DNA from: a virus
Taxonomy: Duplodnaviria > Caudoviricetes
DNA length: 64,000 bases
Strand: one strand, 5' to 3'
Virus record (IMG/VR): IMGVR_UViG_3300033463_006083
Span: 32,001 to 96,000 of that record
Below the pieces are notes generated by a model. That model did no database searches, was not told where the DNA came from, and saw only the letters and a program-made list of their open reading frames with translations. Shown here piece by piece: positions 9,353 through 45,591 of this stretch (the stretch's first letter is position 1; each line of letters starts with the position of its first letter). Position numbers and translations under genes: made by a program.

Positions 9353-9381
9353 TTGAAAAAAATAAAAATATGTAGTATAAT
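9353..9381 (+). promoter_or_regulatory. SigA-type promoter directly after a small terminator
   Basis: TTGAAA-17 nt-TATAAT, preceded by an agatag...ctatct hairpin and a T-run. Confidence 0.65.
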
Positions 9382-9413
9382 ATAATATACGAGGAAATAA
9401 AAGGAGATAAACT

Positions 9414-9665: not shown

Positions 9666-9667
9666 TT

Positions 9668-16989: not shown

Positions 16990-16991
16990 AA

Positions 16992-19028
16992 TTAATCACC
17001 GCCAAGAGAAATACCTTCAGCACTTTCAACTGTATGAGACATAAGATTGTATTTATTATAATTTTCAATAGAACATTCATCGACTTCATATGCAGTTGCT
17101 GAAAAAGACCAAAGGCGTCTACCCAAAGTCTGATTAGGTTGAAAATTAATATCCATAAGTTTTACTAAGAAATTTCCTTCTGTTGGACTGCGGAATAATT
17201 TAACACTATCTTCTTCTAAAAAGGCTTTAACTTTTTCTCTAAAGGCTTTTTCTCATACAAAATCTGAATAAGGTGAAATATTTTCATCTTCATTGTAATT
17301 TTTATATTCTCAATACATATTTTGATACGCTTCTTCTTGAGTAAAGAAAATACCATCTTCATCCATTTGAGAAAATATCATTCCGCCAATAGGAAATTGA
17401 GCATAATTATTATGACCACTTCGTTTTATATATGGATATTTACTTCCTATAGTATCAATTTTAACTTCATTAATAACTTGTTTAAATGAAGCTAAAGAAG
17501 GATTGAATGTAATTTTAATTTGTTTATCTGCGGTAGATAAAAACATGTCCTCTAATACCATCATTACTGGGACATTAAATTTTGACATTGGTCTTCTAAT
17601 ACCATTTGGATCTACACCTTGAACAGCATATTTATATCATACGCCGCTTTCAATAGTATAATCATGTCATATAAAATCTATATAGTTTACTGCATTATAT
17701 TCTGCAGTATAAACATCTTTTCAAATAGCAAACCCGTCCCTATAATCAGCTCTTCTAATAACAACCTTACCTGTAAAATATCCTGTTGCACGAGACTTAG
17801 TAACTCTAATACCAAAATTACCATTTTCAACATCTTTATAGGCATCTATAACTACTGTTAATTGCGTTTTTGTAGATTCTATAATATTAAAATAATATTT
17901 TAAACTATCATTATATAAATTTTTAGTTGTATAATCAAGAATAAAATAATAATCATCCGCAACTTCAAAATTATATGGGATAGCATGATTAAAAGTATTA
18001 ACATCAGTATAATTACTTGTATATAAAATATCAGTATCATATAATAGCTTATCTTCATTATTATATACTCTAATTCTATAACTTTTTAAAGTCTCAGTTT
18101 CATTTTCATCTGCAAACACTAATTGTCCTACAACTTGAGTATCCGCAATATTTTCTAAAATAGATGCGGCAGATGTAGTACTAAACCCTGTTAATTCAAC
18201 TGTTGGTTCAGATATACCACGAATAAGGCACACAGTAGACCATTCACTAAAATATTTTTCATTATATGTTAATCAGCTATCTATTGCTTGTACAGCATCT
18301 GGATCTGTTAAGTCAATTTCTGGATCAGTTGCATCTCTTCCTGTAAAACGAATTTGAATTTTATAATATTTATCTATTTCAAAATTACAACCTTCTAAAT
18401 CTTCAGGCTTAATCTCAACATAATATTTATCATTTGTTTCTCTTGTATTATCTTTTTTAATTTCTTTTAAAGCAATTTCACAAGGATATTTCTTTTTATG
18501 TAACACAGAGCGATTTGTTGCTTGATTTCTTATTGTAACTTGAGCATTTTTAATATCATACATTTTATTGTAAATTGACAATGCGAAATAAACTCTACAT
18601 ATATATTTATTATCTGTAGTAGTCGCAGTTTTAAAAGTTGTAGTAATTGTTCTTTCTACAACTTCTGGTTTATCTTCAAAAAAAGTATTTTCAATTTCTT
18701 CAGCTCTAGAACTTCCTGTAATCAATGCTTCAAGAGCAGTTTTAAATTCCAATTTTAAAGCATTGGCACGCGCAACATACTCAGGACCAGTTCCATAGGT
18801 TGCTTTTAATTCAGCAAGATCTTCTTCATACTGATTCCAAAGTTCTTCTACTCCTGATATACCAGAATTAACAATATTTTTATTTACATCTTTTTCATAA
18901 ATTATCATATCTGCATATGACAAAGTTTTATATGTTTTAGTTACATTATGAGTTGTTATATCTCCAACTAAAAATGCTGGCATATAAGTATCTATTGTAG
19001 GTGGATATAAATTATTTAATACTGCCAT
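16992..19028 (-). CDS. Tail-associated structural protein with Ig/FN3-like domains, 678 aa (code 4)
   Basis: Three fragments in one frame. N-terminal LYPP...YMPAF and C-terminal DTIGSKYP...KLFRSPTEGN...LGRRL motifs, which are typical of distal-tail-like proteins. Confidence 0.72.
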
Positions 19029-19093
19029 ATCAACATCTCCTTTTATCTCTGCGGCAGCCGGTCATGCATTTGTTTGACCGCGATCCCGCACAA

Positions 19094-19594
19094 TTATTTA
19101 TTTATATTACTATTTTCTTTTAAATAAGTTTCACTTCTTTTTGGTAAAGCGCGAATCTCTTCCATTAATTCATCAATAAAAGTATTTCCGCCCTCATCTT
19201 TATAATGACCATATCTTTTTTCAATACAATCTAAACTATAATCATCTATTCAACCAATTTGATAACAAAAATAATGATGTTTTTCTGTTATCCAAGCTTT
19301 AATATCATCTTTATCTGACTCTGTAAGTAAATTAATTGCTTTTTTAATATCGTCAATTGTATGTTTTAATTGAGTTTGACAACTATTAATATCATTTTTC
19401 ATAGTTTCTTGAGCTTGAATTAAATTATTTACACTATCTTGTAAAGCAGTTTTTTTACTTTTTTTCTCAAAAATTTTCTCTCCTCTGCCTCTAGCTCAAT
19501 CAATTCAAGATACTACACCTTTAATAGCTGCCGCTAATAAGACAATGAATAATAAAATTTGGTCAACTGAATATGTATTAAGTAAATCTTTCAT
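19094..19594 (-). CDS. Holin-like / single-pass membrane protein, 166 aa (code 4)
   Basis: N-terminal TM helix ILLFIVLLAAAIKGVVS, a coiled coil, and C-terminal RYGHYKDEGGN..I..LM.EIRALP. Three in-frame TGA codons. AAGGAG RBS. Confidence 0.65.
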
Positions 19595-19643
19595 TTATTA
19601 TGCATCTCCTTTTCTTCCAAAGATAAACTTTCTTTTACTATTG

Positions 19644-19719
19644 TATATTAAAAAAACTTTAAGTAAATAAATTATTTTAGACCAAAATAAAAAAGAGTGA
19701 TATTTGTTATATCACTCTT
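19644..19719 (-). promoter_or_regulatory. Terminator followed by phage-specific promoter motif
   Basis: agagtgata stem + TTTTTATTTT, then GGTCTAAA-N26-AATATA. Confidence 0.7.
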
Positions 19720-19724
19720 GTATT

Positions 19725-21722
19725 TTAATTTGTTGTCCATCCAGCAGTTTGTAATTGTGTTATTAAATCTTGTCCTACTGTTGTAGAATTAATTTGTTTA
19801 TTAGATCCATATAAAGGACTATACATATTTGTATTAAACAAATTCTTTCTTGTTACATTTGAGGCAGTTAAACATACTTTTGCTATATATATTAATGATT
19901 GTGTTGAAAGATTATTACAATATCCAAACATATTAGATATATTTGTAACTGTAAATAAATTTCAATTTTGTAAATTTATATTTACAAGATTATAACATCT
20001 ACCACACATTCCTCCTGTACTATTTACTTTTTCAACATTTCAATTTTCAATACCAATAATATTTTGCAAATTATTGCAATTGTTAAAGAACATTCATAAC
20101 GTAGTAAAATTATTTGTATTTCATCCTGCTACATTAACATCTGTTAAATTATTACAATATCCAAACATAGTCATAGCATAATTAACATTGCTCATATTTC
20201 ATTGAGATAGATTTAAATTAGTAAGATTTCAACAATTAATAAACATTTGTCCAGTATTTTTTACTTTATATAAATTTCATGTTTCTATTCCATCAATTGT
20301 AGTTAGTTTTGTACAACCATAAAACATTCCTTGTGCATAATTAAACTTAGTAACGTTTCAATTGGTAAGATTTAAATAGGACACATTGTTACAATTGTTA
20401 AATATACAACCTGCATTATCTACATTTGCTGTATTTCATTTAGATACATCTAAAACAGTTACATTAAAACACCCTTGAAACATTTGATATAAATTATTTG
20501 TTTTTTGAGTATCTCATTTAGAAATGTCCAGAGTAGTTAAATTAGTACAATTACAAAATATACCTGCAAAACTATTGGCATTTCCTGTATCTCATTTAGA
20601 AATGTCTAGAGTGGTTAAATTAGTACAATTATAAAACATACCTGCAAAATTTGATACTTTATTAGTGTTTCAATCAGAAATAGCTAAAGTAGTCAAATTA
20701 TTACAAAAACTAAATATATTGGCAAGAATTACAGGTCCTATTCAGCTATCATTTCCTCCAACTTTTCATTTTGATACATCTAATGACTGTAAATTATAAC
20801 AACCTCAAAACATAGAAACATAATCTTGTACTTTATTCATATCTCAATTAGAAACATCTAAAGTTGTTAGATTTTGACAATAACCAAAAATATTATTTAA
20901 ATTTTTTACATTACTTGTATTTCAATTTGAAACATCTAAAGCTGTTAATGCTTGGCAACCATAAAATGCATAAGCTAAACTATTAAAATTAATAGTGTTT
21001 CATTTAGATACATCTAAAACTGTAATTTTATTACAATTACTAAAAATACTAGATAAATATTGAAAATTACTAGTATCTCATTCAGATACATCTAATGCAG
21101 TTAAACTATTACAATTATTAAATAATTGATTTAAAGATTGTAATTTATTTGTATTTCAATTAGATACATCTAAAGCTGTTAAGTTTTTACACTCTTTAAA
21201 AGTTGCAAAAGCACTTGTCACATTATTTGTCTTTCAATTAGAAACATTTAAAGCTAATAAATTGGAGCATCCAGAAAATGTTTGTGCCATATCAATAACA
21301 TTACTTGTATCTCAATTAGAAACATCTAGTGTTGTTAAATTAGGACAAGTTGAAAAAGCTTGATTTAAACGTGTTATATTACTTGTATCTCAATTAGACA
21401 CATCTAAGGTTGTTAAGTTTCTACAATTATGAAACATTCTAAAAACATCTGTTGCTTTATTTGTTATTCAATTTGATACATTTACACTTGTTAAATTAGA
21501 ACAACTATATAGCATTTCACTAAAATTTTGAATATTACTTAAATTTGGATTGACGAAATCTAATGATTCTAAAGGACACGTACCTGTACCTTGTCAAGGA
21601 AGAAATCTTGCAAGGTTAGATTCATTTAAAAAATTAACATTTAAAGTAATATTATGAATTGTTCGTACAGATGGATAAAATCCATAAGTACGTCCTGAAA
21701 AAGTAGCTCCTATATTAATCAT
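19725..21722 (-). CDS. BspA/DUF285-type LRR protein A, about 665 aa (code 4; alternative start 21734)
   Basis: 26-aa repeats LDVSN[W](D/N)TSNVxxLxxxFxxCxNLTT, with Trp almost always encoded by TGA. In frame with the C-terminal track fragment. Confidence 0.85.
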
Positions 21723-21723
21723 A

Positions 21724-24700
21724 TTAATTTTCATCTCCTTCTTCAATAGTAATGTCTGTAAATTGTAATGTTGTATCTTTTATAAAATTAACTAAATCAT
21801 TATAATTATTATAAGTTATTGTTGACGAACCTCCATTAGTATCAACATATGTTAAATTATAAATTGGAGGTGGATTATAAGTAACAACTAAATCAACATT
21901 TCCCACAGGCATTACTCCATTACACCAATAATTATTTCCTTGAATAGTTCAGTCAGTAATTGTTGGACTTTGAACATTATACTCTTGTTGATAATCATAA
22001 ATACCAGAATATGCAGTTGCAATTTCTGTTCCATTTTTATCACAATATTTAATATTTAATCTTCATTGTTCATTTTCAGTAGTTCAACCACTAGCTCTTA
22101 ATTGATCTATTAAAGAAACTCCTACTGTATTAGACATAATTTGTTTGCTAGATCCATAAAAAGGACTATATTGATTAGCATTCCTTAAATTTTTATAAGA
22201 TACAGATACATTAGTAGCTGTTAAACACATATTACAAATATTTTTTAAAGAAGCTAGTGTTAAACTATTACAACCTCCAAACATTGCACTAAGATCTGTT
22301 GCATTAATAATATTCCAATTATTAACTAATGCAGATTGTAATTTTTGACAACCGTAGAAAGCATAACCTAAATTTATCATATTTTTAGTATCTCAACTTC
22401 CTACTGAGAAAGTTGTAACATTATTACAACTGTAAAAAGCTCCATATATATTTTGCATTTTTCAAGTATTTCATGTACTTGTATTCATAGTTGTTAAATT
22501 TTGACAATTGTAAAAAAGATAATTTAAATATACTACATTATTAGTTTTTCAATCATTAGGAACAATTTGAGTACTCTTTAATCTATAACATTGTAAAAAA
22601 GTTCCACTTAAATCTATAACATTTGAAGTATTTAAACCCTTGGTATTAATAGTAATTAAATTATAACAATGAGCAAAAGTTCAACATAAATTCGTTACAT
22701 TACAAGTATTTCATGTATTAACACTATTAAATATTGTAATATTAGTACAATAAGTAAATGTATCATACATACTTGTAACATTTGAAAGATTCCATCATTG
22801 AGTATCAATTCTTGTCGCAGCGCGGCAATTATAGAAAGCTTGATCTAAATTTTTCATATTTAAAGTATTTCATGTAGATCCATTAATTTCATTAAGTACT
22901 AAACAATTTTTAAATGTACAAAACATAGTATTTATATTACTCATATTTCATAATAAAGTATTAATATTAACCAATTGTTTACAATTGAAAAAAGCTTGCG
23001 AAATATCAGTAACTTTATAAAGATTTCAATTATTAGTGGTTAAATTTACAAATGCTTGACAATTATAAAAAATACGATTTAAATCTGTAGCATTTATAAG
23101 ATTTCATTGTGAAACATCAATAGATGGCATTTGATAACATTGTAAAAAAGCAGCTTGTAAATTTTGTACATTTTCTAAAGTTCATCTTCCAGTACTTAAG
23201 GCGGAAGTAAGACTTCATAAATGAGCAAAAGTTCAAGTTAAATTTGTTACTTTAGACATATCTCAAGTTCAAGTGTTTAATTTAGTCAATTTAGAACAAT
23301 GATAAAATGTTTGTTCCATATTTTCCAATTCATCAAAATCTCATCCTGTTGTATTTAATGCAGATAAATTATTACAATTATAAAAACATTCTCCAATATG
23401 TTTAACTTTAGGAAATTTTCAATGAGAAGTATTTAATGTTAATAAATTTTGACAATTATAAAAACCGGCATAAAAATTAGTACAAAATTCAGGATCCCAA
23501 CTTGACGTATTTAAACTTGTAATTTGATAAGCTTGGCAAAAAAGTCCTGCTAAATCAGAAACTCCTTTAATGTTTCATTGTGATGTATCAATTGATGTTG
23601 CTCCTCATAAATGAGCAAAAGCTCATTCTAAACAGTAGGCATTGCTAAAGTTTCAATTATACACATTTAAACTTGATAAACTGTTACATTTATAAAAAAT
23701 ACCATAAAAATTTTGTCCATGATAAACATTTCAATTAGCAACATTTAAACTTGATAATAATTGACAACCTCAAAATACATCAGCAAAATTTGTAACATTT
23801 GAAGTGTCTCAAGTTGATAAATTTAATGTTGTAAGATTATAACAATTATTAAACATAGAAGCCATATTTGTCAAATAAGAACTTGATTTTCATTTTGCAA
23901 TATTTAAAGAAGTTAAATTTCGACATTCATCAAAAGCAAAATCTATATTTTTTACATTTGCTATATTTCATTGAGATAAATTTAAAGTTTTTAAATTATA
24001 TGAGCCTCTAAAGGTAGAATTTAATTGTTCTACATTTGCAGTATTTCAATTAAATAGATTTAATCCTGTTAAATTATAACAATAAGCAAATGTATTTGTC
24101 ATATTTTTAACCTTAGAAACATCTCAATTAATAAGATTTAAACTTGGACATGATATAATTCCATAAAATGTACCCCTTAAACTTTTTACATTACTTGTAT
24201 CTCAATTAGATACATCTAAATTAGGCAATGCATAACAACCATCAAATAAATATGCAAAACTTTCAACATTAGAAACATTTCAATTAGATACATTTAATTC
24301 AGCTAATTTAAAACAATTAAAGAAACAAGAATATAAATTTGTTACATTTGATGTATTTCAATTAGAAGTATCTCCTATAGTTGTAAGATTAGTACAATTA
24401 TCAAAACTACTTATTAAAGAAGTAACATTATTAATTTTTCAATTTGAAAGATTTAAACTTGTTAATTTACGACAATTTTCAAAAGCATTTGCCATAGAAA
24501 GCACGTTTATAGTATTTCAATCAGAAATATCTAAATATTGTAAATTTTGACAATTAGCAAATAGCATTTTTAAACTTGCAACATTATTTGTTTTTCAATT
24601 ACCTATATTATTAACATATTGTAAATTATGACATTCATTAAAAAGCATTTGTAAGTTTTGAGAATTATCAAAATTTCAATTATCTATATTAAAAACAGTT

Positions 24701-25824
24701 GGCATATGACAACCATCAAACACTGAACCAAAATTAGTAACATTGTTAGTATGCCAATTATCCACTTTAAAATCTATTAAATTATAACAACCATCAAAAA
24801 TACTACTTAAATTAGATACTTTATCAATATTTCAGTTAGATACATCTAAATGCACTAAATTACGACAATTTCAAAACATATGAGAAAGACTTTCTACATT
24901 TGTAGTATCTCAATTAATAAGATTTATATTTCTTAAATTATAGCATGCGCTAAAAGTCTTGTTCATATTTGTAACATTACTTGTATTTCAAGTAGAAACA
25001 TCTACATCGGTTAATTTACTACATTGTTCAAAAGTTCCTGTTAAATCTTTAACATTATTTATATCTCAACTAGCAAGATTAAATTCTATTATATTAGAAC
25101 AAGCTCCAAATGTTTCTGCCATATCTGTAACATTAGAAACATTCCAATTTGATACATCTAAATTCTTTATATTTCAACATTCTGCAAATAAACCATGTAA
25201 ACTTTTTACATTATTAACAATTCAATTTGAAACATCTAATGTTTTTACTTTTCGACATCCATAAAAAGTATTTGCTAAATTTTGTAAATTATTTAATTGT
25301 CAATTTGAAAGATTTAATTCTCTTAAATTATAACATCCTTTAAAGGTATTTGATAAATTATTAATTTTACTAACATTTCAATTAGATACATTTAAATGCT
25401 GTAAATTTTGACAATTATAAAAAGCATCTTCTAGATTTGTTAAATTACTAGTATTTCAATTTGAAACATCTAAAAATCTTAATAAAGAATCATTTCAAAA
25501 AAGATTACTAATACTTGTAATATTACTCATATTCATTTGAGAAAATCCGCCAAGAGTTTTTAGAGATGTAAAATTTGCAAAAGAATAGTTTATATTAACA
25601 ATATTATTTAAAGAATTTTGACTATCCCCCAATAACATAAGCTCGGTATTTATAGGAGCCCCTTCTTGTTGATTAATATCATCTGTAAAAATATCTAAAC
25701 GATTATTTAAAGATTTAGATCAATCTAAATCTAATATTAGATTTTTACAATTTGGAATAGTAGAATTCATACTATTAAGTGATGATAAAAATAAATTTTT
25801 ATAATTAAAAGGTGTTGCACTCAT
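21724..25824 (-). CDS. BspA/DUF285-type LRR protein B with MucBP-like C-terminal domain, 1366 aa (code 4)
   Basis: AAGGAGG RBS and ATG at 25824. About 40 26-aa repeats, a shared C-cap, then IKYVDKNGTEIA...YNVQSPTI (MucBP-like). In frame with track fragments 22084 and 21724. Confidence 0.85.
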
Positions 25825-25859
25825 TACAATTACCTCCTTTTTCATTTTTTATCTATAAA

Positions 25860-25929
25860 TATATGATTTTTCTATTAAAATAATAAATTACTTTAGACCA
25901 AAATAAAAAAGAGAGCTATTTACTCTCTT
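25860..25929 (-). promoter_or_regulatory. Terminator followed by phage-specific promoter motif
   Basis: agagag stem + T-run, then GGTCTAAA-N26-CATATA. Confidence 0.7.
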
Positions 25930-27061
25930 CTTCATCAATAGTATAAACATACCCTTCTTTACCAAGAACTCCAGATTTTTCATCAAGCTCTTTAACCCAA
26001 TCAGGAAGTCTATCTCTTATTTCATCAAATTCTTCTTTTCCTCTGTAATCTTCAGTTTTTATTTTTTCTAAAAATTGAAAGAAAGTAATTTGAGGAATAA
26101 TACCAATCATATCTTGAGAATGTCCTGCATATTGCATTGTATACATACTTTTTAAAATATTCTCATCAATTTGATCTTCAATTTGTTTATAACAAGAGTG
26201 ATAAAATCTTTTAGCATTAAATAAATTTTCTTCTGCAAACATAGGTTTTTGCTCTAAACATTGAACATATGTAAAATATTGACCTATCATCATTTCAACA
26301 GTAAACTTCATAATACTACCATTAAAAGGGTTTTTCTTTTTACAAAATTTAATTGCATTAATAGACGCGGCAGTTGCTCCTACTTGACATAAATCTCAAT
26401 TATAAAGTGGAGTACCATTATTCTCTTCAATACCAATTCGAGTGATAGAATGTTCAGAGCCTTTTCGCCATAAATAAACTATTTTTTCAACAAAATTAAT
26501 TTTTACTGGGAAACCTTCAATAGAAAGACGGACTTTCCAATTTAATTCCCCATCCTCCATAGCTCTTAATTTTGAAAATCTAATATCATTTGATTTTAAA
26601 AATTGTAAATTATATAATCTTCCAAATACTCAAGGATGTCCTTCATCCATTCTTGGCATCATACGAACTTTCATAGGATTTGGATCAACTTCTTGACAAA
26701 ATATCCCTCTTACTTCAATACAATCAGGTGTAATTCCATCTCTTAAGTTTTCAAGAGACATTGGATCATAAAATACATCATCTGCATCTATCCAAGTTAT
26801 TCATTCAGTTTTTGCGGCGTCCGCACATCTTTGACGTGCTAATCCAGGTCCTGTATTTACTTCGCAATCTAAAATTGTAATATCTAAATCAGGAAATCTT
26901 TCTTTAACAAAATCATAGCTATCACCTGGATTATCATTTGCAATTATTATCGCAACATCATTTTTAATAGATTGAATTTGAATAGAAGAAAGACAATCAC
27001 AAATATGAGGTTGTGCTTTAAAAGCTGGTATTCCTACCGTTATTAATTTTTTATTTGACAT
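25916..27061 (-). CDS. GT2 glycosyltransferase, 381 aa (code 4)
   Basis: ITVGIPAFK, IIIAND, GPGLARQ, [W]ITWIDADD, [W]VFGRLY and MEDGE. Two track fragments share the frame. Confidence 0.9.
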
Positions 27062-27084
27062 ATCTTTTTTCTCCTTCTAAAATT

Positions 27085-27113
27085 ATTATACAATATTTTT
27101 TAAAAAAAGTCAA
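27085..27113 (-). promoter_or_regulatory. SigA-type promoter for the GT2 gene
   Basis: TTGACT-17 nt-TATAAT. Confidence 0.75.
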
Positions 27114-27142
27114 AATAAAAAAGAGTAGTTTTTACTACTCTT
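27112..27142 (-). terminator. Intrinsic terminator after LRR protein C
   Basis: aagagtagt-aaaa-actactctt stem + TTTTATTTT. Confidence 0.8.
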
Positions 27143-30100
27143 AATTTGTTTTTCATCCTGCTGCAGTTAATTGTGTTATTAAATCTTGTCCTACTGTTGT
27201 AACATTAATTTGTTTATTTGTTGTATAAAGTGGACTTCTAATGTTCGTATTCATTAAATTTTTATAAGTAGTAGTCATATTTGTTAAATTTAAAGCAAAT
27301 TTTGCAATACTCACCAAACTATCAGTAGTTAAATTATTACATAAGCCGAAAGCGTTATTTCAAGTTATTAAAGATGGTAAAGATGCATTTGAAATATCTA
27401 AATTTACTAAATTAATACATCCTCTAAAAGTGTTATATCAATTTGCCATGTTTGGTAAATTTCAATTACATATATTAACATCTGTTAAATTTTCACAACC
27501 TGTAAAACAAAAAGGCATTGAAGTTGCATTTAAAAATGTTAAATCAGGAATATTAATATCTTTTAAATTGAAACAAAGACCATAGCTGTCATATAAAGAA
27601 GTAACAGTATCTAAATTTCAATTTAATAAAAAATTAAGATTTGTAATATTAGAATTAAAAAAAGTATATGCTAATCATCACACATTATTAGTTTTTCAAC
27701 TGTCTAAAAAATAAAAATTAAGATTTCAACAATTTCTAAAACTATTAGAAAGATCCATAACAGAAATAGTATTTAATGTTTCTGCTCCATATAAATTTTT
27801 TAAATTAAAACAATTAGAACAAAAATCAGTTAAGTTAGTATAGGTAGATGAAAAATTCATATTATCAATATTAACATTAACTAATGATTGTGCATTATTT
27901 AATAAAGGTAAAGCATTTATACTACTATAATTATTTCAAGATCAATTTGACATATCTAAATCCGTAAGATTAGTTAATCCATCAAAAAACCTATTTCCAT
28001 CTCAACTAAAACTATTTGAAACATTTCAATTTGCAATATTTAATCTTTGTAAGTTAGTGCAGTAACTGAATATATTTCCATTATTAGCGAAATCAGTAAT
28101 ATTACAAAAATTTAAATCTTGTAAATTTACCTCTACTAAATTCGTACAATTCCTAAACATAGCACTAATATTAATTGCTTTTTGAAAATTTCAATAATTT
28201 TTTAAATTATCAATTGAAATTAAACTATTACATCCAGAAAAAGTAAATACAAAAGAAAGAACATTACCAGTATCTCAATTAGCAAGAGGATCAAGATTTT
28301 TAAAATATATAGTATCTGTAAAAGTTTGTAATAAAGTATGTACATTAGAAGTATCTCAATTAAGAATATCATCAAAATTAAAATTTTTACAATTTTGAAA
28401 CATACCTCCTAAAGTAATTGGTATTCAATTTTTAATACCTTTTACAGTGTTTAAATTATTACAACCATGAAATAAAAAATTACACTTATTAGCAACCTGT
28501 TGAAAGTTTAATGTTTCAAGATTCAATTCAGTTATATTTTGACAACCATCAAACATTCACTCTATACTAACTGCATTACTTCAATTTCAATTAGATAAAT
28601 CCAAGACAGAAAGATTATTATCATAATAAAACATATATGAAAAATCTTGTACCTTATTAACTTTTCAGTTAGATACATCAATTGTTTTTAAACTGTTACA
28701 TCAATAAAGAAACCTATGTAAATTAATTGCATTATTAAAATTTCAAGTAGATAAATTTAAGGTAGTTAAATTTGTACAAGTACTAAACATCTGTGCGAAA
28801 TTTTCTCCCGAAGAAACATCTCAATCATTAACATTTAAACTATGAATATAATTATCTCCATAAAAAGTAGATGAAAAATTATTAACTTTTGACACGTCTC
28901 AATTATTAATATAAATATAATCTGCTCATATTCTTGAAAGACTTGAAGATAATTTTGTTAAATTACAAGTATTCCAATCATCAATATTTAAAGTAATTAA
29001 ACGTTGTAAATTATTAAAAACCCCTTGAGGAATATATGTTAAATTGCACACATTTCAATTTGGAATCTGTAAATTAGTTACATATTGACATTCTTTAAAA
29101 ACATTATTCATAGAAGTCATTGGACTGAAATCTCAATTAGGCATACTAATTTTACTAATAATAGCATTATACCATAAATTATCTATATTTTTTATATTAA
29201 CAGCAGTTCAATTTTCTATGTTAAATCTCAAAATATTATCCATATTTAAATTACTAAAAAAATTATAAAGACTAACACCATCTAATACTCAATTATTTGC
29301 ATACAATCTTTTCATATTATTATGTATTAATCTTCCTATAGAAGAATTTGTAATATGCCAATTTTCTGCGTAAATTATATTAGGATATGATCCACTCATA
29401 GAAGTATTTATAATGGTTCAATTATTCATGTCAAATCGTACATTATTACCAGATCCAACTAAACTTGTAACATATGCATTGTTAAATACTCAATTTGATA
29501 AATTAATATTTGAATTTGTTAATCAACAAAAAACACTAGCAGCATAATTAAGATTGTTTGTATTTCATTTTGAAAGATCTAAATTTCAATTATTTCATGG
29601 ACAAAAAGGGGTGTATAAATTTTTAAGATTACTAACATCTCAATTAGAAATATCTGGTGGCTGTAAATTATGACAATAATTAAAAGTATAATACATATTT
29701 GTTAAATTGCAAGTATTTCAATTTGAAACATCTAACATTGTTAAATTATTACATCTAGTAAAAGTACCTTGTAAATGTGAAATATTACTAGTATCTCAGT
29801 TGGATACATCTAAAGTTGTTAAATTATTACAATAAGAAAAAGTATATCATAAATTTTCTAAATTGCTAGTATTTCAATTTGAAACATTTAATGTTGTTAA
29901 ATTTACACAACCCGAAAAAGTGCTCTTCAAATTTTTAATATTACTAATATCTCAATTAGCAACATCTATTTCATTTAAAAAATAACAAGTGTTAAAAGTT
30001 TGATCAAGATGTTCTATTTTAGAAAAATTATTCAAAATAATTTTTTTAGTATTAGCTCCATATGGACCAATATAAGAATTTTCTTCTTTCGGAATTAAGA

Positions 30101-30215
30101 AAAAATCATTCATAGATAAATCTTGAGCTTTTTCTCAGTTTAAATCTAAAAATCAATTATTACAATTATCTAAATAATTTTCTATTAAAATATTTTTATA
30201 ATTATATTTTTTCAT
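27141..30215 (-). CDS. BspA/DUF285-type LRR protein C, 1024 aa (code 4)
   Basis: AAGGAGG RBS and ATG at 30215. The 26-aa Trp(TGA) repeats are degenerate in the middle. The C-cap ...TVGQDLITQLTAAG[W]KTN is nearly identical to that of protein A. The gene is entirely missed by the track. Confidence 0.82.
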
Positions 30216-30234
30216 TGTATTATTTTACACCTCC

Positions 30235-32472
30235 TTATTCTGTAAAACTAATTTTAAATTGAAATTTATTTGTTGTAGAAGTTGAATTATTATAAATTCT
30301 ATATTTAATTTCAATAAAATGTTCTTCATCATCTAAATCTGTATAAACGACTTTTTGTACTGCGGTAGATGAAGCTGTTCCAGAAAAACTTTTTTTAACA
30401 TTTGTACTTTGTTCAGAACTATAATAATTTCGTACTAAAGTCTTATCAACATTAGATAAAATTCCAAAATTATTAGTAGAAGAAGTGGTTTGATTAATAC
30501 AACTAACAACTAATTTTCCTGTATTTGTTTTAAATTTTACTTTACAAAGAGCATAACTATAAGATTTTCCAGTATTACCACTTGTATAATATCCAGTATT
30601 TGAATTTAACGTAAAATCATAAGGCGCATAATACAAACCAGTTTTATCAATAGGCTCAACAACATACTCTCCATCTATATAAGGAACAGATGTAATTTCA
30701 ACATTTTGAGAAACTGTATTTTGTTCATCATCTTCTAAAGTAATATTTATTACTTCATTTCCCTCTCCAATACCTGAAAATTCAATAGAAATACAAGCAT
30801 TGGTTTTATCTAAAGTAGAATTAACTGTATAAATAGAAGTTTCTTCAGGAGACACACTTATAGAAAAATTATTAGGATGATCATCAACTTCAAAACCTCC
30901 ATATAAAATATTTAATGTTTTAGTTCTTGTATTCATAATAGTATAATTATTAATAATTTCTCATGTTAAATTTTGACATACTCTAATATTTGTTAAATCA
31001 TTACGACTATTTAAAAACATCTTTTTCGTAAGAACATTAGAAACATATATATTACAATTATTCATAAGCCCTTCAAAAGCATACTTACATTTTAATCAAT
31101 TGGTAGAATATATCGTATCAAACTGACAATTATTTAAATAAAGATTTTGTAAATTATTACAAAAACTAAAAGCATATCATAAATCAGCAACATTTTGAAC
31201 ATTTCAATTAGATAAATTTAATTCAGTCAAATTATCACAATAACGAAAAGCTCCATATAAATCAATTAAATTATTTGTTTGTCAATTAGAAACATTTAAC
31301 TCAGTTAAATGATTACAACCAGCAAAAGTCCAACTTAAATTTGTTAAATTACAAGTATTTCAATTTGAAACGTCTAAATTTGATAAATTATTACATCAAT
31401 AAAACATATATGCAATATTATTTAATCTAGATGTATTTCAATTTGAAACATCTAAAGTTGATAAATTATAACAGGAAAGAAAAGTATCTACCGCAGATTG
31501 TAATTTACTAGTATTTCAATTTGAAACATCCAAATCTCTTAAATTCTCACAATAGTAAAAAGCATAATTTAAATCAATTAAATTATTTGTTTGTCAATTA
31601 GAAACATTTAAAGTTGTTAAATTATTACAATAATAAAAAGTTCCATCTATTAATCTTAAATTACAAGTATTTCAATTAGAAACATCTAAATTTGTTAAAC
31701 CACTACAAGAAGCAAAAGTATTATATAAAACTTTACAATTAGAAATATTCCAATTAGATACATTTAAATTTGTAAAGCTTTGACAACCTTCAAATGTTCG
31801 ATTTATACTTTTTAAATTACTAGTATCTCAATTTGAAACGTCTAAATCTGCTAATACTCAACATCATAAAAAAGTATTATTCATATACTTTATGTTACTA
31901 ATATTCCAATTAGAAACATCTAAATTTGTTAAATTAGAACAACTATGAAAAACACTATTAAACATTTGTGTGCTTTGTAAATTTCAATTTGATATATTTA
32001 AATCTGTTATATTATAGCAATACATAAAAACATTATCTCAATTTTTAATTTTACTTACATTTCAATTTGAAATATCTACATTTCTAAAATTATTACAACC
32101 ATAAAAAATTCCATTAAGATTATGTATATTTTGTAAATTTCAATTGCAAAGATTTATATTATTTACCATATAGCAATTAGCAAACATATAATCTAAATTT
32201 GTAACATTTTTCATATCTCAATCTTGAAATTCAATATTATCTAACTGATAACAATAATAAAAAGCACGAGATAAAGAAGTATTTTTAGGAAAACCACTCT
32301 GAACATTAATATTTAAATTTGTAAGACCTGACATACCATTAAACATGAACTCTAATCCAGTAGAATGTTTTCAATTTAAATTTAAAATAATATTAGGACA
32401 ATTTCAATCAAATAATGCATGCTGATATGTATACCTAGCATCCATTAATAAATTATTATATTCATATAGCAT
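30235..32472 (-). CDS. BspA/DUF285-type LRR protein D with C-terminal beta-rich domains, 745 aa (code 4)
   Basis: GGAGG RBS and ATG at 32472. About 15 repeats in frame with track fragment 30235..30936. Confidence 0.85.
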
Positions 32473-32479
32473 ATTTTTC

Positions 32480-33340
32480 CTAACCTCCTTCTTCCTCATC
32501 TTCTACAATTTCATCTTCTATTATTAAATCAGCTAAAGCGTTTGCATAAGGTTGTAATAAATTTTGAACTTCACTAACAGAATTACAATAGGTTACAGTA
32601 TATTCATCTTCTGCATTTGCACGATAACTAACTTTAAATCTGACCGTTGCCTCAGGAGGTTCTTGATTAAACACTAAAACTCCATCAAAATAACTATTAT
32701 AAGTATTGTTTGTATTCATAACTAAATTTTCAACTAATTGTTGATTAAAGATAATTTTTGGATAAATTTTTCCTACAATATATTCATTATAAACTATTGG
32801 ACCTTGTGACATAGTAATAGAAATATCTGTAGCTGTTAACATAGTTGGAGAATTAGTTTGATCAGTAAGTTTTTCAAAATCATCATATATTTCTGTTATA
32901 AAAGTTTGTCCATTATCTTCACTATATGTTAATTCAAAAATATCTTGACTTTCTAAAATTTTTAATTTTAATAAAGCCACTCCATTTAAATCTGTATCAC
33001 TTACTCTTGGTGTTAATACTGCAACAGTAGGTTCTGATGGAGTAATAAATATATCTGTGGCGGTTATTATATCATTAGAATTCATTTTAGTTACTAATAA
33101 ATCAAAATCATTATACATTTCTGTTGTAAAAGTCTGTCCACCATCATTACTATATTTTAAAACAAAAACATCTTCATTATTATTATTATTATTATTATTA
33201 GTTTCTGTTTTAGCTTCTAATCACTGAGTTCCATCATATATATAATATTTATCTAAAGTTATATTATAATAACAATCTTCTCTTACAGGATTTTCAGGTG
33301 CCATATATAAATTAGGCACTATAGGTACATCATCATACAT
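32480..33340 (-). CDS. Putative adaptor protein with three copies of a ~40-aa domain, 286 aa (code 4)
   Basis: AAGGAGG RBS. N-terminal PENP...YYNITLDKYYIYDGTQ[W] resembles a tail-fibre attachment motif. It is followed by a poly-Asn linker and a repeated FxLxYSxDxGQTFxTExYxDFxxL...TATDI. Confidence 0.75.
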
Positions 33341-33360
33341 ATTAATACCTCCTTTATTAA

Positions 33361-33438
33361 AATATGAAAAAATGCTCCTCTCTATTATTTATTTTAGCCC
33401 AAAATAAAAAAGAAAGCAAGTTGTTACACTTACTTTCT
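33361..33438 (-). promoter_or_regulatory. Terminator followed by phage-specific promoter motif
   Basis: agaaagtaag/cttgctttct stem + T-run, then GGGCTAAA-N26-CATATT. Confidence 0.7.
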
Positions 33439-33867
33439 AGGTATCTTCATAAAATAACAATAAACTTTTTCATCTATTGCATCTTCATCTTTTATAAAAT
33501 CTTTACTAAACTTAGCATACCATTCTACATTTTCTTCAAATAAATCATGATAATCATTATATGCTGAATTCATTACAATTCAAAAATCAACAGGTCTAAT
33601 TTCAGAATATCCATAAGAATTCCTAACACCTTCAGTGTCAGCTAATTCTCATTTTTTACCATATGGTTCCATACATTCAATAATTTCTCTTGCTTTATCC
33701 TCTGTTAAAACGCGGCCTTCCGCAATCTCATATAATTTTTCTTCAACTTTTTCTAATTCTCTATCTCCAACCATATCAATAATATATTCCATATAATCAG
33801 ACATTTCATCTATCTTTTTTGAATCACCAGAACTAATGATTTTATTTATATATTTTTTGTAGTCCAT
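33430..33867 (-). CDS. Conserved-looking hypothetical phage protein, 145 aa (code 4)
   Basis: The frame extends through TGA: GKK[W]EL...DF[W]IVMNSAYNDY...DFIKDEDA...KVYCYF. Confidence 0.75.
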
Positions 33868-34054
33868 CTTCAATTTTTTCCACCTTTCTTAATACTTCAT
33901 TTAACAATCTATTTTGATATTCTAATTTATGTTCCATATCAAAAATAATTGTATCTAGCTTTCTACTTTGAGATTCATTTTCTTCATACGAATGAAGTGA
34001 TATATATGACAATAATACAGTTAATAAATCTAATGCATCAAGATTTTCTTTCAT
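33842..34054 (-). CDS. Hypothetical coiled-coil protein
   Basis: ORF track. Translationally coupled to both neighbours. Confidence 0.65.
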   Translation of the reverse strand: MKENLDALDLLTVLLSYISLHSYEENESQSRKLDTIIFDMEHKLEYQNRLLNEVLRKVEKIEDGLQKIYK

Positions 34055-35905: not shown

Positions 35906-38900
35906 TTATGCATCTGTGCTATCGTTAGTAATATATAATGTATGAGTATTAGGATCTAGTCTAGTTCTAATACCACCTGTTACATTATAATCTGAATTAG
36001 GAACAGTCATTGTTGATTGTCCTGTTTCAATAGTAATATTACCATATCCTAATAACGAAGTACCATTAATTGTTTTAATATTTGTCCCACTAACTAATTC
36101 TGCTTGTTTTTCATCCCAATAAGTAATTTTTGCATCTGTAATATCATATGCTGGACTTGCAGTAAATACAGGATCAGTTTCAGAAGTAATAAATCCACTG
36201 TCATTTGTTAAATCACTTACTTTTGTTGGAATTGTAGGAAGATTAATTAAATCATTATAATCTCCTGTTGTGGCAACACTAGCTAAATCAGAACTTAATG
36301 TATAATAAGTTAAATTATTAACTGCATTTGTAATATATCCCGCATTATTAGTTAAATCACTCGTATCAGTAGGTAAATCAGTCATTCTAGCTAATCTAAC
36401 TGAGCCAGCATCTTTACCAGTTCCAGATGTAGAATCTACATATACATCTCCTTGATATCAAGCTTCTCCTGTTCAAGTTAAAGTATGTGCATTTGATCTT
36501 GCGTCATCCGCAGTACCATTACCAACTATATGAGCATATACATTTGACCCACTAACTATATTATATTTACCTTGAACATGTTGATTATTACTCAATGCTT
36601 CTGTATAATATCCTTCAGCATGTGAATAAATTCCACTTGCCACAGTATTATTTCCTTCAGCATGTGAATAATCTCTTGAAGCTATACTATTATTTCCTTC
36701 TGCATGTGAATAAGTTCCTGAAGCTGTACTACTATTTCCTTCTGCATGCGCACCCATTCCACTTGCAGTTGTATTATTTCCTTCAGCATGTGCTTGTGCT
36801 CCGCTAGCTTCAGTAGTTCAACCTTCTACATGAGAATAATTACCAGAAGCTTCTCCTGATGCTCCTTCTGCATGTGCAGCAGTTCCAGATGCAAGAGATG
36901 AAAAACCTTCTGCATGAGAATAATCACCAGAAGCTTTTGTTGAAACTCCCTCTGCAACAGCACCATTTCCAATAGTATAATTTGTTCCTTCTGTAGAAGA
37001 ACCAATTGTTCTAACACTTCGTGGTTGACTGCCATTAATCCAATTACTATTTGCTAATGATGGATTTGAACCAGCTGTTACATGTCCTTTATTGTCAACA
37101 GTAACAGATGTATATGTTCCAGCAACAACTCCTGATGTAGCATGAGATAATGTTCTAGTACCACTAGTTGTAATTGCTAAATTATCATCAATAACAATTG
37201 GACCAGTTGCATTTAAAGTAATACTTGTAACAGTACCACTTGGTTCGTCACCAGATGGAATCAATATCCAGCCAGTTCCATTACTAATAAACATATCTCC
37301 TACTTTTGCATTTTGACTTGCATAAGTACCATCTGTAATAACTTTATATGTAAAACCACTATTTGCAGCTGCAGCCGCAGGTAAACTAGTTATCGTTCCT
37401 CCTGACCCTAAAGAACCTTTAAATACCATAAAACCAGGAAGTGCGGCAATAGCTGAATCTACATAAGCTGTAGTTGCAACTTTAGTTGAGTTATCTCCAC
37501 TTTGTTGAGTCGTAGCCGTAACACCATTTGTAATAGCACCAGTTAATATTGAAGCTGGTACTGAAGTAATATTAGCTTGACCTGATGTAGCAACACTAGT
37601 ACCATTAACCGCTACTTCTGTAATAGTACCTGTATTAGTTGTATATCCTTGATTAGTTGCGGCAGTAACTCTACCATAACTATCAACTGTAATTCCTTGA
37701 TAGGTTCCTGCAGTAACACCTGAAGCATCTAAAGCTATCGTTCCTGTCGTCGTGATATCTCCACCCGTAAGACCAGTTCCCGCAGTTACTTTAGTTACGG
37801 TTCCTGTATTAGTTGTATATCCACTATCATTTGTAAATGCACTTATATTAGTTGGAATATCGCTTGTTTTAGCAAGTTTAGAAGAACCAGAAGTTTGACT
37901 TGTTCCTCCTACATAAACATCACCTTTATATCATGCATTACCATTCCAATCAACAGTGTGAGCATTTGAACGAGCTGATGTTCCTGTTCCATTACCAATT
38001 ATATGTGCATATGTATTATTACTATCTAATATATTAAATTTACCTTCTACATGTTGATTTTGTCCAGTTGCTGTTGTGTAACGACCTTCAGCATGTGAAG
38101 TTTGACCACTTGCTGTAGTATAATATCCTTCGGCATGAGATCCATTAGTTCCACTTGCTGTAGTATAATACCCTTCAGCATGTGCTTGTGTTCCGCTTGC
38201 GGTTGTTGTATTACCTTCGGCATGAGACGCACTACCAGAAGCCTTAGTTCCAGTACCTTCCGCAAAAGCATAAGTTCCAACTGAATAACTTGAACCATCT
38301 GCCATAGCATAAATTGTTCTTAAACTACCTGAGGCATTTGCATTTACTAAATTACTATTTACTTCGCTTGTTAAAAATCCACTATCATTAGTTAAATCAC
38401 TAACTTTAGTAGGAACAGTAATATTAGCAACTGCATCTGTATTTGAATTTGCTGTAAAATCAACTATTTTAGTTCCATTTTTTTGAATTGTTAATTTTGC
38501 ATCATTAACAACAGGAATTGTAGGTTTATTTGTTAAATCTTCATAGTTTCCACTAAAATCACTTTTAGCATTTCACGCAGTTCTTTCTGCGGCAGTTATA
38601 AATTTATGAGTTTTATTAGTATCATCAACTAAATCACTGCTTAATTTATTTGAACTTGTTATTTCTGACTGTAAACCACTAACTAATCCACCAACAGGAA
38701 TATCAATTGTATTACCATTTTGTAAGGTTAAAATAATCTTTTTATTTGTTGAATCATATTGACCACTGACAACAACAGATTCAAGAGGTAAATCAATAGT
38801 ACTTGAATTTAACACTGTACCTGCACTATTTTTTAATTTTGCAGTAATCTTATAATCTGTAGTATTTACAGATAGTTCTATTTTATTACCTGTAGCAGTT

Positions 38901-39406
38901 TTTAATTCATAATTAGTTAAATTATTAACATCTTTTGTAATAAAACTAGAAACATCTGGTATGTCGCTAATATTTGCCTTACCATTTCAATAATTAATAT
39001 TTGTATTTGTGATGGTTGCAGCAGGACTTCCTCAATATCCAGAATCCACACGTTCATAATGTGCATTACCATTAGGATCGTTTGCTGCGGTTACAAAGTA
39101 ATAAAGTTGATATTTTTTGTCATTGGCTGTCCCAGAAGAAAGTTTAAGCGCATATAAAACATCATCTTTCCCATTCGCAACAGAAGGTAAACTATTAACA
39201 AACAATAATGCCATACCATTTCTTAAAGTAATATCATCAGGAGGTGTAATCATATCCATACTATTAACTATTGTTCATGAAAGAACGCCTTCTTGTGAAA
39301 TAGAAGGAACAAAAATATCACCTTTATCACCTTTCGCATAAAGGTCTACCTCAAGATAATTTTTCCCCTCAATAGGATTACTCATAACAGAATTATTATC
39401 ATCCAT
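35906..39406 (-). CDS. Tail fibre/adhesin with YadA-head-like repeats, 1166 aa (code 4)
   Basis: Six fragments in one frame. Two blocks of 14-aa ASGxxSHAEGxxTx repeats, PTKxSDLTNDSGF repeats, and GNG...RSNAHT.DW.G neck motifs. Confidence 0.85.
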
Positions 39407-39460
39407 GCTATAAAACCTCCTTTTATATTTTTATATCATTTTTCTTTTTCTCACTATAAT

Positions 39461-39533
39461 AATATTTAAAAATACATAAGATAAATAAATTATTTTAGAC
39501 CAAAATAAAAAAGACAATGTTTCCATCGTCTTT
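39461..39533 (-). promoter_or_regulatory. Terminator followed by phage-specific promoter motif
   Basis: aaagacgatg/cattgtcttt stem + T-run, then GGTCTAAA-N26-AAATAT. Confidence 0.7.
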
Positions 39534-43009: not shown

Positions 43010-43022
43010 ATCCTTTTACCTC

Positions 43023-44816: not shown

Positions 44817-44830
44817 AATTTAGCCTCCTT

Positions 44831-45589: not shown

Positions 45590-45591
45590 AA

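Follow-up and report, generated by a model that had tools for sequence, protein, structure and literature searches.

The T4 gp10-like and the XD type are recognised branching or docking domains of branched receptor-binding complexes. In the cellulosome, the scaffoldin carries repeated small cohesin modules on one scaffold, each with one dockerin partner. Ig-like decoration domains are small, occur in variable number and are often found at the C-terminus of conserved phage structural proteins, where they are thought to bind glycans of the host surface or of mucus. [quoted passage not shown] According to the accounts given in PMC11414711 and PMC7506556, members of the Ackermannviridae, e.g. CBA120, have a branched TSP1-4 complex on the baseplate, and the latter source ascribes a part in the assembly of this complex to the N-terminal 168 residues of TSP2.

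Here, we analysed a locus in the window, i.e. the whole stretch of 64,000 nucleotides of viral DNA under study. We tentatively read the part between 19.6 and 33.4 kb as an optional host-recognition cassette, in which small repeated units on an anchor are putative attachment points for leucine-rich-repeat (LRR) proteins, a reading that we hold to be tenable, if somewhat short of probable.

Results

A recoded cassette within the tail module

The source phage stems from the cattle gut, has a genome of approximately 120-150 kb and reads TGA as tryptophan (code 4). The frames of the cassette (19725-33340, minus strand) are open only with TGA=W, and translation with table 11 yields fragments. Codes with TAG=Q and TAA=Q likewise resulted in fragmentary ORFs and were rejected. 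The code-4 ORFs on the minus strand have lengths of 286, 754, 1024, 381, 1373 and 673 aa; the first encodes the anchor-like protein, that of 381 aa a GT2 glycosyltransferase, and the remaining four the DUF285 LRR proteins D, C, B and A. Its features are listed in the direction of transcription.

33411..33438, minus strand: terminator-like hairpin 5′ of the cassette (terminator scan)
33393-33409, minus strand: motif TTTTATTTTGGGCTAAA after the upstream hairpin (motif search, reading of the sequence)
32480..33340, minus strand: anchor-like ('adaptor') protein, 286 aa; one in-frame TGA, at W40; TAG stop
33206..33340, minus strand: N-terminal 45 residues of the anchor, proposed virion-attachment motif (PIVPNLY.AP..P...DCYYNI..DKYYIYDG..W)
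33041..33172, minus strand: unit U1, type I, residues 57-100, Asp-box-like YSNDGGQTF
32813..32944, minus strand: unit U2, type I, residues 133-176 (alignment, AF2)
32483..32644, minus strand: unit U3, type II, C-terminal, residues 233-280 and acidic tail (HMM, hhalign, AF2)
30235..32472, minus strand: LRR-D, 745 aa from the SD-supported ATG, 21 TGA codons (PF03382 E=5.8e-84)
27141..30215, minus strand: LRR-C, 1024 aa, DUF285, 44 TGA codons, ending in a conserved ...AGWKTN cap
27121-27142, minus strand: terminator 3′ of LRR-C (terminator scan)
25916..27061, minus strand: GT2 glycosyltransferase, 381 aa, own transcription unit with hairpins on either side (PF00535 E=1.5e-13)
21724..25824, minus strand: LRR-B, 1366 aa from the SD-supported ATG, 51 TGA codons (PF03382 E=1.1e-154)
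~21907-22056, minus strand: MucBP-like stretch in LRR-B, between cap and U4 (MucBP E=0.0055, below the cut-off)
21727..21867, minus strand: unit U4, type II, last ~45 residues of LRR-B (ORF residues 1329-1373; HMM E=1.6e-9)
19725..21722, minus strand: LRR-A, 665 aa, DUF285 (Pfam), 25 TGA codons, N-terminus MINIGATF
19693-19719, minus strand: terminator 3′ of LRR-A (terminator scan)
19676-19692: second copy of the upstream motif, beyond the LRR-A terminator (motif search)

The cassette is organised in three transcription units, which contain the anchor gene with LRR-D and LRR-C, the GT2 gene, and LRR-B with LRR-A, respectively. Tryptophan codons in the four LRR genes are TGA in 141 cases vs TGG in 13, and 69 of these TGAs specify the tryptophan of the repeat. 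Moreover, a tRNA with the anticodon TCA is located at positions 98731-98826 of the record. With TGA at conserved tryptophan positions and a TCA tRNA of its own, the phage is recoded (TGA=W, code 4), and the pattern agrees with the recoding described in the preprint 10.1101/2021.08.26.457843.

The cassette lies inside the tail module, in which tail-fibre genes occupy 35906-48857 and tail proteins are encoded at 14353-19091 and 53499-57914, and all four DUF285 genes of the 119.6-kb record are located in the cassette. A 4626-bp contig from run X9 maps to 33431-33928 and then to 19119-19319, with ~390 nt in between. As this contig joins both flanks, it represents a relative without anchor, LRR genes and GT2 together. 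These results support the notion that the anchor and LRR genes form one accessory cassette, absent en bloc in a relative. In the close strains of runs X3 and X7, the gene order B, GT2, C, D, anchor is kept.

The head gene encodes an anchor-like protein

The original prediction ascribed a tail-attachment-like N-terminus to the protein encoded by the head gene. Judged from its sequence, this protein indeed looks like an anchor, comprising a near-invariant N-terminus (residues 1-45 among 21-22 family members), a conserved beta-rich core and three units. The residue W40, encoded by TGA, is invariant in the family. In addition, over 100 large proteins contain 3-15 copies each of the N-terminal motif, beside collagen-like stretches. 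The only family match of the anchor was phrog_8309 (unknown function; E=1.4e-5), and Pfam, PHROGs, fold searches and the ESM Atlas revealed no other recognisable domain; the best ESM Atlas score, 0.76, was obtained with an unnamed viral cluster.

Employing a 22-row alignment, AF2 yielded a model of the anchor with a pLDDT of 80.3, compared with 32 for the single sequence. When the whole chain of this model was searched, Foldseek PDB returned nothing at E<=0.001, TM values in BFVD were <=0.17, and VIA gave a best Z of 5.4 for generic small alpha/beta pieces, a result that excludes no known fold. Phage fibre and spike pieces matched weakly (Z 3.7-4.4), and the anchor N-terminus gave a weak match to a piece of CBA120 TSP3 (Z 4.4, 37 residues). 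A branching or docking domain of the T4 gp10-like or XD type was absent from the lists of Pfam, PHROGs, Foldseek and VIA, which likewise excludes nothing.

Profile searches of viral contigs with the anchor alignments revealed matches to the N-terminal motif only. A search of DNA for the pattern IYPKIIFN identified 23 loci, none of which (0/23) matched the anchor-family HMM; among 106 pattern matches in genome contigs there were 0 anchor relatives, and the INPHARED phage collection contained no anchor match. In metagenome contigs we observed one related locus, L005, the only full-length family match.

The units form one domain family with two subtypes

Three copies of a small unit had been assigned to the head gene at 32480-33340, and they are present as described; with limits slightly narrower than in the list above, U1 spans residues 59-99, U2 135-176 and U3 235-280. 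The proposed fourth copy, U4, is also there; it ends LRR-B directly before gene A, which starts 1 nt on. An HMM built from 14 C-termini of the anchor family, with U4 left out, was used to search the 1051 six-frame ORFs of the 119.6-kb record and matched the end of LRR-B over the full model (E=1.6e-9), the next matches being U2 (E=0.13) and U1 (E=1.0). The expectation that the units align significantly or share a common fold was borne out for the family as a whole. Alignment of U1 and U2 resulted in a score of 131 (z=20.7), which was reached in 0/2000 shuffles. For U2 and U4, 4/2000 shuffles scored as high, for U3 and U4 15/2000, and for U1 and U4 75/2000 (z=2.2), and the pairs U1-U3 and U2-U3 were not significant (910/2000 and 1464/2000, respectively). 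Comparison of 36 internal with 16 C-terminal units by hhalign gave a probability of 95% (E=3.8e-8, 42 columns), and in the AF2 model U1, U2 and U3 share a similar layout, each consisting of a hairpin, a helix and a strand. HMM and profile searches did not reveal a fifth copy in the 119.6-kb record. Taken together, U1-U4 are one homologous, previously unnamed domain family with two subtypes.

Type I units (U1, U2) are internal and contain a hairpin of the form YS.DGG.TF that resembles the Asp-box, a hairpin with the consensus S-x-D-x-G-x-T-W/F. The sequence reads S.DGG.TF in U1 and S.DNG.TF in U2, and the Asp-box family PF02012 matched residues 63-72 of the anchor (E=0.005) with 17.1 bits vs a Pfam cut-off of 27. 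The same YS.DGG.TF hairpin is found in P0129, an adhesin-like repeat protein of 1646 aa. Type II units (U3, U4) are always C-terminal and possess an acidic tail. Only this subtype is universal in the anchor family, and its position is strictly C-terminal in all full-length members and in LRR-B. We found no long protein with the C-terminus of LRR-B (residues 1255-1373) in databases that mostly hold table-11 calls, which fragment such genes; as most database proteins seem to be called in this way, this search is weak evidence.

The strict C-terminal position raises the possibility that the type II unit is a folding or oligomerisation module (foldon, tip domain) of its own protein, the internal units being partnerless duplicates. 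The AF2 model, in which long strands (residues 122-140 and 172-192) extend out of the core into the units in the manner of elongated fibre-like sheets, agrees with such a function, as does the neighbourhood of the anchor N-terminal motif and collagen-like (trimeric) stretches in other proteins. However, LRR-A, LRR-C and the LRR proteins of L005 fold without the unit, and there is no obvious reason why an LRR solenoid should oligomerise. We therefore judge it unlikely that folding is the role of the unit.

The number of internal units varies from one to three among the anchor homologs (in 7, 9 and 6 of 22 proteins, respectively). Across homologs, the internal units cluster by position, with 7 label changes vs 17.1 in shuffles (0/200 as low). 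Such a grouping can be plain descent, a counter-point to docking. In distant homologs, the same positions are occupied by larger domains, namely a Listeria-Bacteroides repeat in P0048, DUF7507 in P0008 and other inserts in P0027 and P0028. As a further counter-point to docking, a variable number of small domains on a conserved scaffold also has the look of decoration domains.

The units could decorate a short tail fibre, or act on it as weak adhesion domains, and themselves bind host-surface or mucus glycans, the LRR proteins being mounted by other means or not being virion parts; we regard this as possible, with considerable doubt attached. The copy number of 1-3 and the domains that replace the unit in P0027, P0028, P0048 and P0008 would be in line with it, and so would the MucBP-like stretch that precedes U4, the hairpin in the adhesin-like P0129 and the LRR array without units in phage L032 (see below). 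It leaves unexplained why the C-terminal unit, acidic tail included, invariably closes the protein, and why LRR-B gained a unit exactly where the next LRR protein has a different N-terminus. Moreover, the X9 relative, from which anchor and LRR genes are missing together, argues against decoration, as does the predicted small alpha/beta fold without a sugar-binding match, although this comparison (best Z 5.4) excludes nothing.

Gene junctions downstream of the type II units

Shine-Dalgarno (SD) sites place the starts of the LRR genes later than the ORF finder does. On this basis, LRR-D starts with MLYEYNN, 7 nt past the anchor stop, LRR-B with MSATPFNYKN, and LRR-A with MINIGATF, 1 nt past the LRR-B stop. 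Hence, after each gene that ends in a unit, another LRR gene begins at a distance of only 7 nt or 1 nt, respectively, an arrangement that fits docking. As a counter-point to docking, late operons of phages frequently contain abutting genes, irrespective of any binding between the products. The codons for the acidic tail of U3 contain the GGAGG site of LRR-D, and EEGDEN, the tail of U4, is encoded across the GAAGGAG site of LRR-A. The L005 anchor keeps the acidic tail with the SD site located outside the gene, its TAA TAA end lying 20 nt before a separate SD site and ATG.

At both junctions the downstream frame is +1 relative to the upstream one, with an overlap of 20 and 23 nt between the ORFs when these are read from the first possible start. 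A programmed +1 frameshift would fuse the anchor to LRR-D and LRR-B to LRR-A, the unit then being an internal linker domain. However, both downstream genes have a GGAGG or GAAGGAG site of their own and an ATG past the upstream stop, we saw no slippery site at the junctions, and in L005 the double stop of the anchor is followed by its separate SD site and ATG. A frameshift thus appears highly improbable.

The LRR proteins and their N-termini

LRR-A, LRR-B, LRR-C and LRR-D are of the DUF285/BspA type (PF03382), with 240-506 bits at a gathering cut-off of 25 bits, E-values of 1e-72 to 1e-154 and 7-12 stretches each. LRR-D contains a separate C-terminal domain of ~250 aa beside the DUF285 part, and a C-terminal cap is common to LRR-A, LRR-B and LRR-C. 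Inspection of the four proteins by eye revealed neither a hydrophobic signal peptide nor a lipobox, and they gave no match to a known attachment domain. By tblastn with the A-like database protein P0163, DUF285 LRR genes were detected in 92/50,697 phage records, including Aeromonas LAh10, Sphingomonas PAU, Butyrivibrio, Listeria and Synechococcus phages; all matches were <60% identical, and those among the 25 matches listed <=36%. In the complete 132.9-kb phage L032/G001, neither an anchor of this kind nor a unit lies close to a tandem array of at least five DUF285 genes, which shows that an LRR array can do without the unit domain.

A motif at the N-terminus was originally predicted to be shared by LRR-B, LRR-C and LRR-D as opposed to LRR-A. 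We found it, in the form Y.Y(K/N)N(L/I)...NC.N..L.L(D/N)W, in these three proteins and not in LRR-A; however, its conservation is weak, the first 45 residues of B, C and D being 26-41% identical to each other and 19-27% to those of A. The motif contains NC.N...W pieces as in the internal LRR repeat, two residues shorter, and was matched by an HMM of the internal repeat in fragments only. Going by these sequences, it may represent no more than a first repeat or a cap. The motif is also present in lrr2-4 of L005, and identity between counterparts over the first 45 residues is 24-50%. The best conserved part of LRR-A, LRR-C and their L005 counterparts is not the N-terminus but the C-terminal 60 residues (47-67%), and LRR-D is 24% identical to its counterpart in the first 45 residues vs 42% overall. 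In the GT2 protein, 352/381 residues are identical to the L005 copy.

Units and LRR genes at two loci

The anchor of L005 comprises three internal and one C-terminal unit, and downstream of it lie at least four LRR genes before the locus is cut off at the contig end. Its B-like LRR protein is devoid of U4, and the next LRR protein has a canonical N-terminus. In the window, the anchor has 2+1 units, LRR-B carries U4, and the N-terminus of LRR-A is odd. This comparison of unit and LRR gene counts covers two loci only, the window and the contig-end locus L005. Complex predictions, in which the database proteins P0163 and P0017 served as stand-ins and no controls were included, resulted in ipSAE values of 0.01 and 0.00 and are uninformative either way.

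Discussion

In the proposed mechanism, the N-terminus of the anchor would fix the protein to the tail or baseplate, the units would hold the LRR proteins through protein-protein contacts, and the latter would be host-adhesion parts. The best-placed pairs, those encoded by abutting genes, would be U3 with LRR-D and U4 with LRR-A, resulting in a branched display. Three points fit docking, namely the lack of the whole cassette in a relative, the locus L005, in which an anchor with four units is accompanied by four or more LRR genes, and the abutting genes. Also on the side of docking are the homology of the units, the place of the cassette within the tail module, the confinement of all four DUF285 genes of the record to it, the lack of any other recognisable domain in the anchor, the clustering of internal units by position and the persistence of the acidic tail in L005. 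We consider docking, decoration and folding to be equally viable readings of the units. That the unit is a putative docking socket, one per LRR protein, and that an LRR protein held in this way may itself supply a socket for a further one, resulting in a hierarchical display, is a speculative and rather doubtful proposal.

If the unit were the socket of an LRR protein, a new domain family would be defined, and the principle of branched receptor binding would be widened from tailspikes to LRR adhesins, in the form of a scaffoldin-like hierarchical display made of solenoid proteins. By joint gain or loss of units and genes, a phage could then alter both how many LRR adhesins it displays and which ones, and the units, set against the LRR genes, would provide a simple genomic read-out of host-range modules in uncultured recoded gut phages. 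Standard gene callers shred the cassette, and its clean annotation as a recoded locus stands even if the units are mere decoration.

The literature, as far as available to us, did not describe virion placement or ligand of phage DUF285 LRR proteins. For the other phage proteins of this type, no mounting on an anchor is described, and those examined lack the unit. With Ig-like decoration domains the unit shares its small size, its variable copy number and its location on a conserved protein; unlike these, it is predicted to be a hairpin-helix-strand and not an Ig sandwich, and no match to Big_2, FN3 or I-set was found. With KP32, K11 and KP34, in so far as these are described in the source cited above, the proposed system would have in common a virion-fixed anchor that carries a further RBP via a small domain, adjacent genes, and docking of the carried protein by a short conserved N-terminal peptide. 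In contrast to the tailspikes and depolymerases carried there, the carried proteins are DUF285 LRR solenoids here, and docking would depend on a unit of 45 residues, unrelated to the domain there and present in 3+1 copies, whose binding is putative. The proposed hierarchy from the anchor to LRR-B and on to LRR-A is reminiscent of CBA120, in which, by the description available, a carried protein carries others, but nothing like the N-terminal assembly region of TSP2 outlined there was recognised in the cassette. The scaffoldin differs in module size and predicted fold, no cohesin or dockerin family being among the Pfam matches (E<=0.01) of the anchor and the four LRR proteins, and the display would be on the virion instead of the cell surface; the resemblance is one of concept only, in that a single scaffold would bear several copies of a small module with one partner apiece.

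The four units form one domain family with two subtypes

The original prediction proposed that four copies of a small domain dock leucine-rich-repeat (LRR) proteins: three units of ~40 residues (U1-U3) in the protein heading the locus, hereafter the anchor, and one (U4) at the C-terminal end of LRR-B. Gene starts were placed by Shine-Dalgarno sites.

Genes of the cassette, all on the minus strand
32480-33340: anchor-like protein, 286 aa
30235-32472: LRR-D, 745 aa, DUF285
27141-30215: LRR-C, 1024 aa, DUF285
25916-27061: GT2 glycosyltransferase, 381 aa
21724-25824: LRR-B, 1366 aa, DUF285
19725-21722: LRR-A, 665 aa, DUF285

The four LRR proteins match DUF285 (PF03382) with E values of 3e-72 to 1e-154, and the record holds no DUF285 genes beyond these. 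Pairwise alignment bore out the likeness of the units in part: U1 and U2 aligned strongly (score 131, z=20.7; equalled in 0 of 2000 shuffles) and U4 was weakly like U2 (4 of 2000 shuffles as high) and U3 (15 of 2000), whereas U3 showed no significant likeness to U1 or U2 (2000 shuffles). An HMM built from 14 anchor-family C-terminal ends, with U4 left out, matched the end of LRR-B over the full model length (E=1.6e-9), followed in the record by U2 and U1. In addition, a profile of 36 internal units matched a profile of 16 C-terminal units with 95% probability (E=3.8e-8, 42 columns), and in the AF2 model of the anchor (22-row alignment, pLDDT 80.3) U1, U2 and U3 each fold as a hairpin, then one or two helices, then a strand. 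Taken together, the profile, HMM and model evidence therefore places U1-U4 in one domain family, as had been proposed, with two subtypes: the internal type I, whose hairpin YS.DGG.TF gives a BNR/Asp-box match below the Pfam threshold, and the C-terminal type II. Searches of the 119.6-kb record revealed no fifth copy, and Pfam, PHROGs, Foldseek, VIA, BFVD and the ESM Atlas yielded no name for the domain, the fold searches being performed with the whole-chain model.

Architecture of the anchor family

Database searches returned 20 anchor homologs at E<=0.01; among 1.8 billion representatives, about 15 clusters matched at E<=1e-30. In all full-length homologs the C-terminus is formed by a U3-like unit with acidic residues after it. 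Residues 1-45 and the core segments A.L.PR..L.GVALLKL and IVGKIYPKIIFN..LVEN...FDGVLVF are near-invariant, and between such segments sit the type I units, numbering one in 7, two in 9 and three in 6 of the 22 proteins; distant members carry other domains at these positions. Type I units cluster by position, not by protein, with 13 of 15 first-position units in one group and 7 label changes in the unit tree versus 17.1 in shuffles (0 of 200 as low; the alignment has only 44 columns). Kinship alone could explain this grouping.

In more than 100 large proteins the N-terminal motif of the anchor is also repeated 3 to 15 times, between collagen-like stretches. This ~40-residue repeat (..AP..P..N.AYYN....K.YIWDG..W..LAQDG) is present in the database proteins P0022, P0040 and more than 100 others. 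No Pfam family covering it was found, and its structural matches to phage spike and fibre pieces are weak (Z 3.7-4.4). The anchor homologs P0002 and P0005 carry an extra DUF7507-like domain of ~117 residues ahead of the otherwise N-terminal motif; if their gene models are right, the motif does not necessarily lie at the very N-terminus.

The cassette is optional and bounded by terminator elements

Anchor, LRR genes and GT2 make up an optional block that moves as a whole. One contig of sequencing run X9, 4626 bp long, covers 33431-33928 and then 19119-19319 with ~390 nt between, and a 19049-33384 joint is listed. The gene order B, GT2, C, D, anchor is kept in close strains (runs X3 and X7). A run X3 contig omits 685-823 nt within LRR-A (20327-21151), a hint, and no more because repeat assembly is error-prone, of a strain carrying fewer repeats.

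The anchor stop lies 7 nt from the LRR-D start, and the LRR-B stop 1 nt from the LRR-A start. Terminator-like hairpins were located upstream of the anchor and downstream of LRR-C and of LRR-A (6 found versus 1.5 expected in the scan), with an additional one 3′ of GT2 by sequence reading. The hairpin positions therefore delimit three transcription units: anchor-D-C, GT2 and B-A. Directly 3′ of terminator hairpins at operon ends we observed the motif TTTTATTTTGG(T/G)CTAAA.

Hairpin-following motif (motif search), minus strand
19676-19692
25892-25908
33393-33409
39494-39510
50791-50807

The motif TTTTATTTTGGNCTAAA has 5 minus-strand matches versus 0.70 expected (5 reached in 0 of 100 shuffles), and the ends of the cassette coincide with a terminator and this motif. 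Hairpin and motif may constitute a combined terminator and late-promoter element bounding the optional cassette, which is surrounded by tail genes.

Neighbouring genes
14353-16989: tail protein
35906-39406: fibre-like protein with SHAEG repeats
43023-44816: fibre-like protein with SHAEG repeats
45981-48857: fibre-like protein with SHAEG repeats
50849-51703: endolysin
53499-57914: tail protein

The three large fibre-like proteins share SHAEG/AHAEG repeat runs and phrog_25468; there are therefore several host-recognition candidates besides the LRR cassette.

TGA recoding is stage-biased

Under table 11 the region appears as scattered short ORFs, and reading TGA as tryptophan opens six long minus-strand genes. 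Reading TAG or TAA as glutamine did not improve the region's frames and was rejected. The four LRR genes encode tryptophan by 141 TGA and 13 TGG codons, 69 of those TGA codons falling at the tryptophan position of the LRR repeat; the sole TGA of the anchor gene encodes W40, invariant in the anchor family. Recoding in the window shows a stage bias: in-frame TGA codons number 0-1 in plus-strand genes between 1 and 11 kb and are many, up to 51, in minus-strand late genes. This pattern is described for TGA-recoded gut phages in a preprint (10.1101/2021.08.26.457843), and the runs holding the record best are labelled bovine gut metagenome.

The record (estimated completeness 80%) contains 24 tRNA genes, as a block at record positions 95228-104984, one of them with anticodon TCA and adjoining tRNA-Trp(CCA). 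Another has anticodon CTA, although no long frames open under TAG=Q. TAG is the stop codon of the anchor and GT2 genes.

Possible docking of the LRR proteins

Only one related locus was found, on metagenome contig L005. Its anchor carries three type I units plus one type II unit, and the genes that follow encode, in order, LRR proteins resembling D and C, GT2, an LRR protein resembling B and a fourth LRR protein. The B-like protein stops at the ...AGWITN cap and lacks U4; the fourth gene has a canonical N-terminus and is interrupted by the contig end. Between the loci GT2 is identical at 352 of 381 residues (92%), against only 39-42% identity for the LRR genes.

GT2 lies among or directly after DUF285 genes in three loci: the window (25916-27061), L005 (14838-15983) and another phage locus, L031 (9008-9805). 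The LRR repeat consensus NNTFYNCNNLTTLDVSNWNTSNVTNL contains three N-x-S/T triplets; possible targets of the enzyme are the LRR proteins or the host surface. At 572-10195 of a complete record (G001; 132,855 bases, terminal repeats), locus L032 comprises a tandem array of at least five DUF285 genes; each starts with a conserved motif other than that of B, C and D (..QDLVDNLNYLDETK..IKQ.I..KGQ.I.DND.F) but ends in the same cap type (...AGWSY).

The proposal that unit number follows LRR gene number agrees with four units and four LRR genes in the window and four units and at least four LRR genes in L005, that is, with two loci only. Moreover, both genes ending in a type II unit, anchor and LRR-B, abut an LRR gene. 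This arrangement, the optional block cassette and the L005 layout may reasonably be read in favour of docking.

The two-locus sample, by contrast, would read against docking or as neutral, as would two further observations. The N-terminal motif predicted to be shared by B, C and D is present, but its conservation is weak and it resembles an LRR repeat of reduced length. In A, C and the LRR proteins of L005, conservation is highest in the C-terminal 60 residues (47-67% identical), a cap shared by L031 and L032 proteins, which have another N-terminal motif and near which neither anchor nor unit lies. Around the L032 array no anchor or unit was found within 10 kb, the sole anchor-profile match in that record being an N-terminal-motif match ~27 kb away.

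A role of the units in decoration and one in folding are live rivals. From these sequence comparisons, we hold the general docking model, in which the candidate docking units would hold LRR proteins, to be possible, with somewhat less than an even chance; its full form, with one unit per LRR and B carrying A, appears unlikely.

Comparison with known systems

Abstract-level literature searches retrieved no account of how DUF285 proteins are mounted on phage. As to the cohesin-dockerin system, neither domain was found among the Pfam matches of the anchor and the four LRR proteins. It is established for Klebsiella podophages (PMC13352976) and Ackermannviridae (PMC11414711, PMC7506556) that an anchor can carry receptor-binding proteins, which have a docking peptide, by way of a small branching domain. 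In contrast to these, the proteins proposed to be carried in the window are LRR solenoids, and a new small domain present in several copies is the candidate socket.
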